From a virus (lineage: Duplodnaviria; Caudoviricetes), in the IMG/VR virus record IMGVR_UViG_3300021963_000022: a stretch of 64,000 nt of DNA. One strand, written 5' to 3'. Below the pieces are notes generated by a model, which saw only the letters and a list, made by a program, of their open reading frames with translations, was not told where the DNA came from and ran no database searches. This document shows positions 4,521-34,155 of the stretch, piece after piece (the first letter of the stretch is position 1; every line of letters begins with the position of its first letter). The translations under genes and the position numbers were made by a program.

Positions 4521-5611
4521 CTTTTTCTTATTCCTGAATTCTGTTTGATAAAGACCATATTACCTCCCGGTGATCCATCACCAATAAGTTCCGATGCTAA
4601 TGTATCGTTATGAATAATAGTAACTAATGTGTTTGAACTGTATCCCAGTGTTTTTACTTCAGCATAATGTTCATTCTCTGTATTACGATATGCCACACCC
4701 TTACCCCTACTTTGTATCTCTGATTCATTTTTTTCCCAGATGACGCAGACATTTGTAGCAGAATTACAATTCTTGTTTACAAACCCAGTAGTAAGATTTA
4801 ATATCCTTGCTTGTGTCTCATCACTATCTTTTTGTATAGCTTCATTTAACTTACGTGCTTGCTCTTGTTCTTCTTGTTCTTGTTCCATTTCTTTTTTGCT
4901 CTTACCATTTTGATTGTTAATAGCTTTAATAATTTCCAATGGCTTTGCAATAATCAAGTTGTTTGATATTTTTCTCTCAGTTATATTCATTACAACTGGT
5001 ATAGTAGGTGCTATATTATTACTTGTAACAAATGTACCATGAAATGCTTGATCCAATACAACTTTGCCAACCAATGTCTCTACTTCAATACTACCTACAC
5101 GGCATTTGTTTTCTTCTAATTCGTAATCTTTCACTTTTTCATCTTCTTTACAGCTAGGAACTAATACGATTAAGCTCTGTCCTGCTTCATCTACTGTCAT
5201 AGTGAAGTCAGTACCACGTACTGCAATACTTGCTGTTGGAGTTTTGATTGCTACTTGTTGACTATTTGTTTTAGCAATTTGTCCTGATGCATAGCGTACT
5301 GTACCCATACCAACTTTAAGTGCTAGTTTTCCTGCATCACTTTTATTGGGGTCAAACACAAAATCGTCTATAAGTAAACGACTATTCTCGGTTACTTTGA
5401 CTTTAGTATCATCTTTGAAAATTAATTGTACTGTGCCGTTTTTAGTAGAATAGATATCATTACTTTCGATACCAACACCTTTATTGCCTACAACTTTGTT
5501 TTTTCCACGAGTAATTTCACCAGGAGCACCTGTAAATTCCGATACGTTACCTATGTTAGCATTTGCTGTTATACATAATAGCAAAGACAACAATATGAAT
5601 AACTTACGCAT
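4517..5611 (-). CDS. FecR-domain secreted protein
   Basis: Signal peptide; FecR-like motifs VQLIFKDDTKVKVTENSRL and IKTPTASIAVRGTDF. Confidence 0.8.
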   Translation of the reverse strand: MRKLFILLSLLLCITANANIGNVSEFTGAPGEITRGKNKVVGNKGVGIESNDIYSTKNGTVQLIFKDDTKVKVTENSRLLIDDFVFDPNKSDAGKLALKVGMGTVRYASGQIAKTNSQQVAIKTPTASIAVRGTDFTMTVDEAGQSLIVLVPSCKEDEKVKDYELEENKCRVGSIEVETLVGKVVLDQAFHGTFVTSNNIAPTIPVVMNITERKISNNLIIAKPLEIIKAINNQNGKSKKEMEQEQEEQEQARKLNEAIQKDSDETQARILNLTTGFVNKNCNSATNVCVIWEKNESEIQSRGKGVAYRNTENEHYAEVKTLGYSSNTLVTIIHNDTLASELIGDGSPGGNMVFIKQNSGIRKR

Positions 5612-25705: not shown

Positions 25706-26314
25706 TTACATTGCGGGTCCGTTCCCGTTTTTGAATCCTACTTCTCCACCTTCATCTTTGATTCGTTTAATAACATCTTCAAACAATATAGGTTTATAAT
25801 CAGTATGCTCAACACATACACAATGATAGCGAGGATCAATTACATGATCACCCCATACTTCAGTCATTACTCTATTAGCATGTAGGTGACCATGAATGTT
25901 AACACCAAATCTACCCAATGATTCAGTATGAATAGGTATATGACTTAATATCATACCATTCATCACGTGATAGGCACGTAGTTCACGGAAGTGTTCTCTA
26001 TACTCATTATCACGGAAGATATCATGGTTGCCACGAATCAATACTTTGTCACCGTTTAACCGACTCATAATCTTTAATGCTTTACGGTTGATAACAACAT
26101 CACCTAAGTGATATACTTTATCGTTTGGTCGTACTGTTTCGTTCCAACGCTTAACCATTTCTTCATCCATCTCATCGGCATTATCCCATGGGCGAAGTTT
26201 AGTCACTCCATCATTACGAGTGAATCTACATACTCCGGTATGTCCGAAGTGTGTGTCCGAAACTAAAAATACTGCTGGCATATTATACTCCGTTTTTTCT
26301 TGATATCCAACCAT
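25706..26314 (-). CDS. calcineurin-like metallophosphoesterase
   Basis: SDTHFGH, HLGDV, RGNHD, SHIP and HGHLH motifs; true start probably at MPAVF. Confidence 0.9.
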   Translation of the reverse strand: MVGYQEKTEYNMPAVFLVSDTHFGHTGVCRFTRNDGVTKLRPWDNADEMDEEMVKRWNETVRPNDKVYHLGDVVINRKALKIMSRLNGDKVLIRGNHDIFRDNEYREHFRELRAYHVMNGMILSHIPIHTESLGRFGVNIHGHLHANRVMTEVWGDHVIDPRYHCVCVEHTDYKPILFEDVIKRIKDEGGEVGFKNGNGPAM

Positions 26315-26489: not shown

Positions 26490-26801
26490 TCAAGCTGTTA
26501 GCCAACCTATTTCATCTTTTGTTTCAACAGATTCGGCTCCGTCATACTCATTGATTTTAAACTCAGTGCCTTCAGGTACCCAAGCAACTTCTAAGTCCAT
26601 CATACCACCATCATATATTGCAGGGTACTTCAATGCCACATATGTTTGTAGTTCGTCAAATTTTTCGTCCAATACAAATTGTGCGATAGCAGGTTCAAAA
26701 ATAAGTTCAGGCATAGTAGGGTTCCAAGTGAACCATCCTGCACCAAAGCCAGGACTATATAATACAGCTACTTTCCCATTTCTAATTAGTTTGTTCATCA
26801 T
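26490..26801 (-). CDS. hypothetical phage protein
   Basis: VAVLYSPGFGAGWFTWN..INEYDGAESV; promoter upstream. Confidence 0.8.
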   Translation of the reverse strand: MMNKLIRNGKVAVLYSPGFGAGWFTWNPTMPELIFEPAIAQFVLDEKFDELQTYVALKYPAIYDGGMMDLEVAWVPEGTEFKINEYDGAESVETKDEIGWLTA

Positions 26802-26903
26802 ATTTTACCTCTGTGTGTATTATACATCTTTTGGGAATTATTGTCAAGCGCAGTAAAACACACCCTAGATGCGCTAAATGTATATTATAGTATTAAGATA
26901 AAG

Positions 26904-27173
26904 GAACGAGTCATTATGACTGTATGCGGTTGTTTGGCTAGGGGTGCAAGACTATTTAGCTTATAAATTTAGTGTGTCAGCTACTAGCACTACCAAGCCC
27001 TGACATGGGTTTAAGGTTCCGTCCTACATATCTACATTTAGACAGTTATGCTCTGCCTTAGTGATTTCTCAAATTGCCCCTAAATTGAAGCCTTGCAGTA
27101 GATCCTAAGCACTGTGCAGTTATCGTTACCGCAATTACGCCTTCGTTAACGGAGAAGAGTAACCCGAGTGTTC
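26904..27173. ncRNA. candidate structured non-coding RNA (~270 nt), family unknown
   Basis: ORF-free and more GC-rich than its flanks; nested long-range helices seen by eye (see findings). Confidence 0.55.
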
Positions 27174-27176
27174 TTA

Positions 27177-27968
27177 TTATAGTATAAATTGTCTTTGTTG
27201 TCTACTGTTTTTGGGCAAACTGTTATCTATATCTATATCAAAAATCCAACAGTCCATGACTTCATTTCGCATGTATTCAAAGGGCATGTAGCAGTATCCG
27301 TTAAGTCCCCAGTATTTTCCAAAACTATTTCTAACTAAAAATAATTTTTTGTTCAGGTCATAACCGACAAACGTCATAGCATGTGCTCCTAATAGAGCTT
27401 CATTTTTTTCTGGCATTTTTATAGTATTACCAGAATCATATAGGTCATCAAATGAGTTGTATACATGCATACTAAAAACTACAGGGTATTCTTTATTTAG
27501 TGCGTCTAATGTATCTTCTAGGGTAGAGATACGATAGTAATTTTTAATGGTTCTATTTTTAGCATCTTCATAGCATCTAACACTAGGAGGAACTGAAAAA
27601 TCTTCTATTAAGTATGGCCACAAATCTTCTTTGCATACACCATATTGTTGTACAGCTTTGATGGCATCACGCACGTATGCACCTACATCTTCACTAACAA
27701 CATCTTCAATCATTCGTGCATTGTAATACACAAACAATCTACTTAGGTCGACAAACTTACTAGGGTCTTGTTTGTTCATCATTAACTCATATGCACCCAC
27801 AACTGCTTGACCAGTACAACTTCCCAAATGACCTTGACTTTCAATAGGACTAGCCCATTTACGTAAGTCAACTACATCACGTAATGGTTCCCTTTTAAAG
27901 GTGTAAGGCAAGTCACGCCAATCGCTTGGGTCTTGCCTTACACGGTACTTAGATTTAAGTACTAGCAT
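27177..27968 (-). CDS. papain-family (C1A) cysteine protease
   Basis: QGHLGSCTG, GAHAM and RNSFGKYWGLNGY catalytic motifs. Confidence 0.92.
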   Translation of the reverse strand: MLVLKSKYRVRQDPSDWRDLPYTFKREPLRDVVDLRKWASPIESQGHLGSCTGQAVVGAYELMMNKQDPSKFVDLSRLFVYYNARMIEDVVSEDVGAYVRDAIKAVQQYGVCKEDLWPYLIEDFSVPPSVRCYEDAKNRTIKNYYRISTLEDTLDALNKEYPVVFSMHVYNSFDDLYDSGNTIKMPEKNEALLGAHAMTFVGYDLNKKLFLVRNSFGKYWGLNGYCYMPFEYMRNEVMDCWIFDIDIDNSLPKNSRQQRQFIL

Positions 27969-28505: not shown

Positions 28506-28739
28506 TTATTTGTTTGGACGTAGATTTTCTCTAACTCTTTTTAAGTATTCACGACCAACTAATCCTGCTTCAATTTCTTGTAATGCAGTTACAGTTGGAC
28601 CTGCTTTAGTGTTAAGTGTAGAACGATGTCCACGTTTCAATTCTCTTACCCTTTGTGAGGCAATGAGAACTAAATCGAATCGATTGCCGATCATACTGGC
28701 GGCTTCTTCACTTGAATATCTTGCTCTAGATTCTGACAT
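28506..28739 (-). CDS. rpoZ: RNA polymerase omega subunit
   Basis: IGNRFDLVLIASQRVREL..ALQEIEAG signature. Confidence 0.9.
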   Translation of the reverse strand: MSESRARYSSEEAASMIGNRFDLVLIASQRVRELKRGHRSTLNTKAGPTVTALQEIEAGLVGREYLKRVRENLRPNK

Positions 28740-30507: not shown

Positions 30508-30530
30508 GTATATATTGTTATGATGTGAAT

Positions 30531-30722
30531 TTATGCTACAATAGGACGAAACTCAACCTTGAGTCCGTCTTCAACGTTGAAGTCTGATAGCAAACCGTTT
30601 GCTTTGGCAATATTTATTTCTTGCCAATAGTCTTTGGGTTGATAGCTATCACCCGTAACAGTTATTGTTTTATAAATTTTATCATTTATTAAAATTTTTA
30701 CTCGCATAATACTATTTATCAT
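30531..30722 (-). CDS. small hypothetical protein
   Basis: 63 aa ORF between tRNAs; ATAAATA upstream of internal Met. Confidence 0.55.
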   Translation of the reverse strand: MINSIMRVKILINDKIYKTITVTGDSYQPKDYWQEINIAKANGLLSDFNVEDGLKVEFRPIVA

Positions 30723-30725
30723 ATC

Positions 30726-33758: not shown

Positions 33759-33889
33759 AAGATGAGTTACGGTTGCAAGACCTAGTGTCTCATTACTGAG
33801 AGAAGTGTCAGGGCGATGTAACTCAAAAATTAGTATAACATAGATGTGTATAATATTAGGGTTGTTGTATACATCTATGTTATGTATTA

Positions 33890-34078
33890 GTATAAGCTAC
33901 TGGTTTCCATGCCAGCCCTTAATTGAGCGGTTACTCTGTCCATCTCTTTTATTCTAACGTCTGTGTGCAGAGAGATACTGCCTATCAGATTCAGAGTAAT
34001 TAACTCGCTAACGGTCTTCTGCCACCGGATCTCTATCATTAATCAAACGCTATTTTAACGAAAATAGTAACGGGATTC
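33890..34078 (-). ncRNA. candidate structured RNA downstream of tRNA-Glu
   Basis: Multiple helices (TTACTCTG/CAGAGTAA, CTATTTT/AAAATAG, ATCTCT/AGAGAT); no ORF in track. Confidence 0.55.
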
Positions 34079-34080
34079 TT

Positions 34081-34155
34081 TGGAAGAGCATAGGAGAATC
34101 GAACTCCTCTTCTTAGGATGAAAACCTAATGTCCTAACCGATAGACGAATGCTCC
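34081..34155 (-). tRNA. tRNA-Glu(TTC)
   Basis: Loop TT-TTC-AT, CCA. Confidence 0.93.

Follow-up and report, generated by a model that had tools for sequence, protein, structure and literature searches.

A family of pseudoknotted RNAs in uncultured phages, encoded near tRNA genes and genes for a predicted Ro60-fold protein

Particles of Ro60 and Y RNA have been described in animals, in some bacteria and in a small number of phages. The tRNA cluster of bacteriophage T4 encodes two small stable RNAs that are not tRNAs, C and D (species 1 and 2), which are approximately 120-140 nt long, are released by tRNA-processing enzymes and have no known function. We know of no link between these two RNAs and a Ro60-like gene. 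Bacterial and phage Ro60 proteins (Rsr) bind Y RNAs encoded beside their genes, such as YrlA/YrlB and Yrn1 (Chen et al., 2014, PMC4201824), and the Ro60-binding part of Y RNAs is a bulged helix with a GNCGAA-type motif in the stem of the 5' and 3' ends (PMC4201824). The Ro60 protein of Thermus phage phiLo binds two adjacent Y-like RNAs (Yrl1 and Yrl2) as well as the host PNPase, and hijacking of PNPase is the proposal made so far for the use of Ro60 and Y RNA by phages (PMC12135203).

The RNA described here is encoded in a stretch of 64 kb from an uncultured phage (the window), which carries 27 tRNA genes on the minus strand. As in Ro60/Y RNA systems, a small structured RNA is found beside, and on the same strand as, the gene of a ring protein with a predicted Ro60 fold (in the relatives, not in the window), and there are ties to tRNA genes and tRNA-processing enzymes. 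As in Y RNAs, a constant module is combined with a variable body, which is tRNA-like in one chimeric member. Unlike in the described systems, however, the neighbouring protein is DUF2828/DUF7788 and not Pfam TROVE, and unlike Y RNAs (approximately 100 nt) the RNA is about 210 nt long, has at least two pseudoknots and lacks a stem of the 5' and 3' ends, its last hairpin (H_f) being local. Neither Y_RNA nor YrlA (RF00019, RF02553) was matched in the Rfam search, and no GNCGAA-type motif was seen in the members read by eye. The copies in tRNA arrays can be likened, without sequence comparison, to T4 RNAs C and D as non-tRNA RNAs within a phage tRNA operon, although the RNA of about 210 nt is longer. 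With 6S RNA (RF00013 and related families) it shares its non-coding nature and similar length, but in 6S RNA the paired 5' and 3' ends close an extended, irregular duplex that opens into a central bubble, whereas the phage RNA consists of hairpins in series with pseudoknots. Like tmRNA, which some phages encode, it contains a series of pseudoknots in one molecule; unlike tmRNA it has neither a tRNA-like acceptor/T-arm domain nor a tag reading frame.

The RNA gene and its family

A sequence-only reading of the window had proposed a structured RNA of approximately 270 nt, standing alone outside the tRNA array, in an ORF-free and GC-enriched gap that follows a papain gene and lies close to a phage rpoZ gene. 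The features of the region are as follows.

27177-27968, minus strand: papain-family cysteine protease gene, upstream of the RNA
27204-27176, minus strand: predicted sigma-70 promoter P1 (TAGACA, 17 nt, TATAAT; 11 of 12 consensus positions)
~27172 to ~26963, minus strand: RNA gene, ~210 nt (covariance model R1, 184 bits, E ~1e-58)
26855-26950, minus strand: conserved trailer module (~100 nt), separate from the RNA family
26847-26819, minus strand: predicted promoter P3 for the next gene (TTGACA, 17 nt, TATAAT; 12/12)
26490-26801, minus strand: 103-aa gene, downstream of the RNA, no Pfam match
28506-28739: omega-subunit-like (rpoZ-like) gene, match to RNA_pol_Rpb6
33880-34083, minus strand: distant paralogue of the RNA family (R1, 24.1 bits, E 2e-7, full model length)

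The gap extends over 375 nt (26802-27176) between two minus-strand genes and is free of ORFs as described: the longest stop-to-stop frames in the gap and its immediate edges encode 47 aa (minus strand) and 58 aa (plus strand), and all ATG-started minus-strand frames in the gap, read by eye, have at most nine codons. Both neighbouring genes were correctly named (Pfam Peptidase_C1, E 1.1e-16, for the papain gene; RNA_pol_Rpb6, E 1.7e-11, for the rpoZ-like gene, 1.3 kb upstream of the RNA). The GC enrichment of the gap turned out to be marginal (0.39-0.42 vs. 0.33-0.40 in the neighbours). That the gap holds a real structured RNA gene is almost certain: the gene is conserved, has its own predicted promoter and displays strong covariation, and it does stand alone, outside the tRNA array. 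Its extent had been overestimated, as the conserved RNA comprises about 210 nt and the homologues end near the equivalent of position 26963. The conserved part starts at ACACUCGG (27171) and ends a few bases past the hairpin UGUCAG...CUGACA (26975), and the DNA 3' of it varies by locus (tRNAs, promoters or other DNA).

Promoter P1 overlaps the stop codon of the papain gene, and the RNA begins 4-7 nt past this promoter. Since P1 directly abuts the RNA, it would fire into the candidate, with a predicted start at approximately 27170-27172, between AAGAAC and ACUCGG. We infer transcription and the exact ends of the RNA; for the 5' end we rely on P1 and on copies beginning 1-4 nt behind a tRNA, and for the 3' end on copies with 0-3 nt left to the following tRNA. 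Host RNA polymerase would transcribe a stable RNA of about 210 nt from this near-consensus sigma-70 promoter of its own. The same arrangement, TAGACA-17-TATAAT, is found in front of the copy in L044/L092, and P1 is homologous to the promoter that precedes candidate handle RNAs and the DUF2828 gene in L031 and L035. A window-wide scan revealed that the 16-39 kb part of the minus strand is dense in P1-type promoters; one of them (32239-32211) immediately precedes tRNA-Met and, like P1, continues with AAGAACA past its -10 box. Four metatranscriptome runs did not cover the RNA and are uninformative either way.

Just 5' of the -35 box of the promoters driving these RNA genes there is a motif, GTTT[GA]CCCAAA (window 27205-27220, minus strand; L031 ~4748-4765; L035 ~5262-5280; L044 ~28-43), possibly an UP element or the site of a regulator.

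The first relative, L035, was found by an 18-mer from the region and showed which stretches are conserved. Pattern scans (including a metagenome scan), nhmmer and the Infernal covariance model R1 then yielded 35 distinct full-length members in uncultured phage contigs, and 31 further copies were found behind DUF2828 genes. The contigs of the relatives are 110-364 kb in size and originate from lake and estuary samples. In addition, the tRNA array of the window contains the distant paralogue at 33880-34083, which is flush with the 3' end of tRNA-Glu and has the H_a loop CGUUA and the 3' module (GGACAG..., GGGCU...AGUAGC) in common with the RNA. The gap between tRNA-Ala and tRNA-Met (30508-30725, minus strand) is occupied by a 63-codon ORF in the window and by a member of the RNA family in a close relative (L019).

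Other searches were negative. The RNA was absent from 33 loci fetched via the two flanking proteins, which had only promoter and trailer pieces. Two early DNA patterns had no matches and another had three of four matches by chance; a 19-mer scan of bacterial genomes gave only chance coding matches, e.g., in a conserved Bacteroidota gene. There was no match in a blastn search of the region against GenBank phages, and none of R1 beside the DUF2828 genes of six cultured phages, whose DUF2828 proteins are ~45% identical (Citrobacter Ci1, Stenotrophomonas DLP_6, Synechococcus BUCT-ZZ01, Aeromonas Ahp1, Ralstonia RSP15 and Serratia BF). Rfam gave no match at the gathering score, none at E <= 10 on 26700-27300 and none at E <= 1 for six other members. 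The family was thus found neither in Rfam nor in the literature searched. The earlier failure to recognize tmRNA, RNase P or SRP signatures was borne out, as neither ARAGORN (tmRNA) nor Rfam gave a match. The segments ACAGAAC ... GGCUU of the RNA had been taken by us to resemble RNase P; that reading was dropped, there being no Rfam match and the candidate P4 pairing being in conflict with covarying pairs.

Fold and covariation

The fold consists of six hairpins and two pseudoknots with good support, plus a third, tentative one (PK1). All elements are on the minus strand.

27166-27165 with 27151-27150: PK1, tentative tail-to-loop contact of 2 bp
27159-27154/27143-27138: H_a, covariation
27133-27129/27119-27115: H_b, covariation; UGCGG with CUGCA, double changes in 5/5 pairs
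27114-27110/27100-27096: H_c, covariation
27107-27102 with 27065-27059: PK2, H_c loop with the strand just before H_e
27095-27088/27079-27070: H_d, covariation; includes GGGC (27079-27076) with GCUU (27091-27088)
27058-27053/27045-27040: H_e, AGGCAG/CUGUCU, covariation
27051-27047 with 27030-27026: PK3, H_e loop with the strand just after H_e
27020-27019/27009-27008: mini-hairpin of 2 bp (clamp), covariation
27005-26994/26987-26975: H_f, covariation; invariant loop GUAGUG (GUNGUG across the family)

On its own the 270-nt stretch folds no better than shuffled sequences (-60.0 kcal/mol; z +0.70 for the minus and +1.10 for the plus strand). Covariation among the collected relatives, in turn, is pronounced. 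RNAalifold on 12 sequences found compensatory changes in 17 of 36 pairs. In the alignment of all 35 members, which was fitted to the covariance model and so favours the nested-helix counts, the six nested helices have 92.1% of cells paired (74.5% when shuffled), double changes in 28/37 pairs and a covariation score of 0.491 vs. 0.185, reached by none of 500 shuffles; controls with slid registers gave 0.055-0.088. PK2, PK3, PK1, the clamp and an extension of H_d by four further pairs were revealed by a mutual-information scan of the alignment. The pseudoknot columns lie outside the model and hence were not fitted to it. Nested helices, pseudoknots and the H_d extension together make up 56 pairs, of which 89.5% are paired (72.4% shuffled), with a score of 0.474 vs. 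0.188 that was again reached by 0/500 shuffles.

Both well-supported pseudoknots are formed by different bases in different members. PK2 occurs as CACGAU/AUCGUG, UAAGAC/GUCUUA, UACGAU/AUCGUA and UAGGAU/AUCCUA, and as UAG-GAU with AUC-A-CUA in the window; PK3 as ACUUA/UAAGU, ACUUG/CAAGU and UGUUAU/AUAACA, and as GCAUA/UAUGU in the window. The strands pair better with their own partners than with those of other members (-4.83 vs. -2.35 kcal/mol for PK2 and -3.94 vs. -1.54 kcal/mol for PK3), and better than with shuffled ones. In PK1 the columns 10/28 are C-G 27 times, A-U six times and G-C once, and the self-versus-cross difference (-2.91 vs. -2.15) is weak and not significant. The clamp alternates between G-C and A-U in at least two lineages. 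For pairing of the 5'-terminal CACU with the GUNGUG loop there is one compensatory case only (L113). A closing helix UUAC/GUAG suggested by RNAalifold for 12 sequences did not hold in the wider family, and a scan of every column pair for covariation revealed no helix between the two ends of the RNA.

Both internal hairpins of the sequence-only reading are real and covary, AGGCAG/CUGUCU as H_e and UGUCAG/CUGACA (27005-27000 with 26980-26975) as part of H_f. The three nested long-range pairings, on the other hand, did not survive, all of them using 26904-26960, outside the conserved RNA. The partners given to UGCGGU (27133-27128, with ACCGCA) and to UAGGGG-CAA (27082-27074, with 26949-26939) are contradicted by covariation, since bases of both segments belong to local covarying helices, UGCGG to H_b and GGGC to H_d. 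The CACCCCUAG segment has its partner in the separate trailer module. The rod-like fold for which a 6S-like decoy had been suggested gives way to the chain of hairpins, which leaves no room for a central bubble of the 6S type. Such a decoy would mimic an open promoter and sequester RNA polymerase in connection with the phage omega subunit. The size of the RNA, roughly that of 6S RNA, and the rpoZ-like gene close upstream would suit it, but there is neither a rod with a central bubble nor a covariation-supported terminal stem, no 6S family was matched at E <= 10, and the neighbours that recur among relatives are the Ro60-like DUF2828 gene and tRNAs, so that this explanation is extremely improbable.

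The 3' part of the RNA forms a module of GGAC.G, the 2-bp clamp and a bulged hairpin with the loop GUNGUG. L105 and L118 retain this module with a different 5' body. In the chimeric L105 (1085-1304, minus strand), a tRNA-Gly(UCC)-like cloverleaf, enclosed by an 11-bp extension of the acceptor stem, stands in place of the 5' body, and the H_e/PK3 part is retained along with the 3' module; copies of this chimera are present in L125, L130 and L133.

Neighbouring genes and the history of the window locus

Among the members found through the RNA, 14 of 35 are preceded on the same strand by a DUF2828+DUF7788 gene, which is 3-83 nt away in 12 cases and ~700-750 nt away in two. To remove sampling bias, 80 DUF2828/DUF7788 loci (69-100% identity) were sampled via the protein alone. 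R1 matched in 31 of these, always on the same strand and 1-200 nt past the stop codon. As many as 21 of the 31 copies have no tRNA within 1.2 kb downstream, and the adjacency to DUF2828 is thus not a by-product of tRNA arrays. The other 49 loci lack the RNA; some have another conserved element and others a terminator only. Most of the remaining members found through the RNA reside in tRNA arrays, flush (0-4 nt) with tRNAs of the same strand. In L113 one tRNA ends at 940 and the next begins at 1162, and the RNA takes up exactly the interval in between; L116 is alike. Such exact boundaries imply that a discrete RNA is released from the arrays by tRNA processing. Five large contigs that carry the RNA in tRNA arrays (110-259 kb, 31-73% complete) gave no match to DUF2828, DUF7788 or TROVE, so the RNA can occur where no Ro60-like gene is close by.

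Several copies start 3-13 nt past the DUF2828 stop codon and are probably co-transcribed with that gene. This could point to a cis-acting element that serves the upstream gene as a structured 3' UTR, stabiliser or terminator or forms a long leader for the downstream one, and the terminator-like trailer and next gene that follow the RNA in the window would fit. We consider it very improbable, because the flanking genes vary (papain, DUF2828, tRNAs and others) while the RNA is constant, the RNA has its own promoter in the window and in L044, the full-consensus P3 separates it from the next gene, and array copies would be excised by tRNA processing.

In the 500 nt upstream of the DUF2828 gene, 12 of 13 loci have one to three copies of the heptamer ACAGCAA, on the DUF2828 strand and in ORF-free DNA behind a strong promoter (e.g., L035 5300-5800 and L031 4800-5340). 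These elements appear to be candidate handle RNAs, distinct from the downstream RNA of ~210 nt. They are another candidate partner of the protein, so that the ~210-nt RNA need not be its ligand.

In ten loci (L144, L152, L153, L159, L160, L175, L176, L178, L206 and L210) the first ~130 nt past the DUF2828 stop codon hold another conserved non-coding element in place of the RNA. It reads GCUGACCC.CAC ... CAGCGUCCGC ... CGAAA ... GGGAUGGGCUG ... CCUGACACA, followed by a terminator hairpin, and is probably a second RNA family.

The calcineurin-like metallophosphoesterase gene of the window (25706-26314, minus strand; Pfam Metallophos, E 5.5e-6) has a counterpart directly behind the RNA in L039, and in Serratia phage BF an RNA ligase gene adjoins the DUF2828 gene. 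These neighbours hint at an RNA-repair context.

The trailer that follows the RNA in the window is conserved in L035, L043, L087, L044 and L031, and also in L156, L163, L164, L173 and L182. It occurs with or without the RNA; L031 has the trailer but not the RNA. In the window CACCCCUAG (26947-26939) pairs with CUAGGGUG (26872-26865), and a U-rich run follows. Across loci the cassette consists of ACACCCUAG and CUAGGGUGU at a distance of ~65-75 nt, the U-run and a consensus promoter, P3 also being conserved in relatives. The stem is present in the minimum-free-energy fold (z only 0.10), and its invariance leaves no covariation to draw on. The trailer looks like a terminator with a large, conserved loop, and the cassette like a terminator-promoter junction.

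Neither a Ro60-like (DUF2828) gene in the 64-kb window (tblastn) nor an ACAGCAA cluster at the window locus was found, and in L190, L192, L194 and L195 a homologue of the 103-aa gene follows DUF2828 directly. The gene orders compare as follows.

L031: papain, P1-homologous promoter, ACAGCAA RNAs, DUF2828, trailer, P3
L190-L195: DUF2828, terminator, promoter, homologue of the 103-aa gene
Window: papain, P1, RNA, trailer, P3, 103-aa gene

These orders suggest a deletion at the window locus. Judged from this comparison, the window appears to have lost the DUF2828 gene and the upstream handle RNAs and to have retained the promoter and the RNA, and the module promoter (P1) would now be fused to the RNA. 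The absence of the protein gene and of the ACAGCAA RNAs, which flank the family in relatives, raises the question of whether the RNA is a decaying, non-functional remnant. This is highly unlikely: the copy scores 184 bits over the full model and is abutted by a promoter with 11/12 consensus positions, PK2 and PK3 pair through compensating bases of its own, and only three helix positions are non-standard, the two outer ones of H_a and one in H_d.

The DUF2828 protein and possible roles of the RNA

A total of 710 cultured phage records and over 6000 sequence clusters contain relatives of the DUF2828 protein. A literature search on DUF2828 returned only unrelated plant and tardigrade papers, and none on RNAs of these relatives. 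Pfam TROVE does not match the protein, its domains being DUF2828/DUF7788, and phmmer against PDB gave nothing meaningful. An AlphaFold2 model from the single sequence was unusable (pLDDT 42), and one built with an alignment of 89 diverse relatives reached a pLDDT of 91.4 and a pTM of 0.91. In a Foldseek search of PDB with the latter model, the best 13 matches were all Ro60, Rsr or phage Ro60, aligned over their full length (E 3.8e-8 to 3.5e-6, TM 0.47-0.63, 500-579 aligned columns), including those of Xenopus, human, Deinococcus (Rsr) and Thermus phage phiLo. The next matches were generic vWA domains (E ~5e-3). The best matches of a sequence profile against PDB were likewise Ro60/TROVE, and weak. 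The assignment of a Ro60 fold, i.e., a HEAT-repeat ring with a C-terminal vWA domain, thus holds for the modelled protein.

The gene neighbourhoods are the best clue to function. By analogy with the described particles, we tentatively suggest as the most likely role of the RNA that of a Y-RNA-like, protein-binding partner of the Ro60-like DUF2828/DUF7788 ring protein. The RNA, folded into six hairpins tied by at least two pseudoknots, each between a hairpin loop and a neighbouring single strand, would play the part of a Y RNA for the phage ring protein, to which we infer that it binds; possibly it ties the protein to host RNA-processing enzymes that act on tRNA-like transcripts. The same-strand position behind DUF2828 genes, the Ro60 fold of the protein, the described Ro60/Y RNA pairs and the modular handle, i.e., the constant 3' module with a swapped 5' body, speak for this partnership. 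Against it speak the lack of Y-RNA hallmarks, the 49 of 80 DUF2828 loci without the RNA, the six cultured phages without a match, and the window and five large contigs in which no Ro60-like gene was found.

Some of the same observations would suit a stable tRNA-operon RNA whose function does not require a Ro60-like protein, DUF2828 being merely a frequent neighbour and both genes lying at the head of tRNA arrays. Such an RNA could act as a ribozyme or as a decoy for tRNA-targeting host nucleases, or could serve tRNA transcripts of the phage or the host as a chaperone or scaffold. Many members are flush between same-strand tRNAs, the tRNA array of the window has a second, diverged copy, the five large contigs carry array copies with no Ro60-like match, and in the window the RNA was retained though DUF2828 is gone. 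In addition, the invariant junction and loop nucleotides and the pseudoknots suggest a precise tertiary fold, as in ribozymes and ligand-binding RNAs. The prevalence of DUF2828-linked copies without a nearby tRNA (21/31) argues against this explanation. No catalytic motif or known ribozyme family was matched and no substrate is evident, and we regard the explanation as somewhat unlikely.

The partnership with the ring protein could also be extended. The RNA might be part of a second kind of Ro/Y-type RNP, found in large phages and built on the DUF2828 ring protein, in which the three-pseudoknot body itself is active on transcripts of the tRNA operon, for example as a new ribozyme or an adaptor for a tRNA enzyme. 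This is a speculative and rather unlikely scenario; if true, an activity of its own would explain why the RNA is retained in tRNA arrays, or under its own promoter, without the protein gene.

Studies on how phages use Ro60 and Y RNA are just beginning, and a pseudoknotted RNA family tied to the DUF2828 protein and to tRNA arrays provides a concrete ligand to test. The family is also a good target for structural work. The RNA gene of the window illustrates that real RNA genes, missed by annotation, lie in the long gaps of phage tRNA regions.
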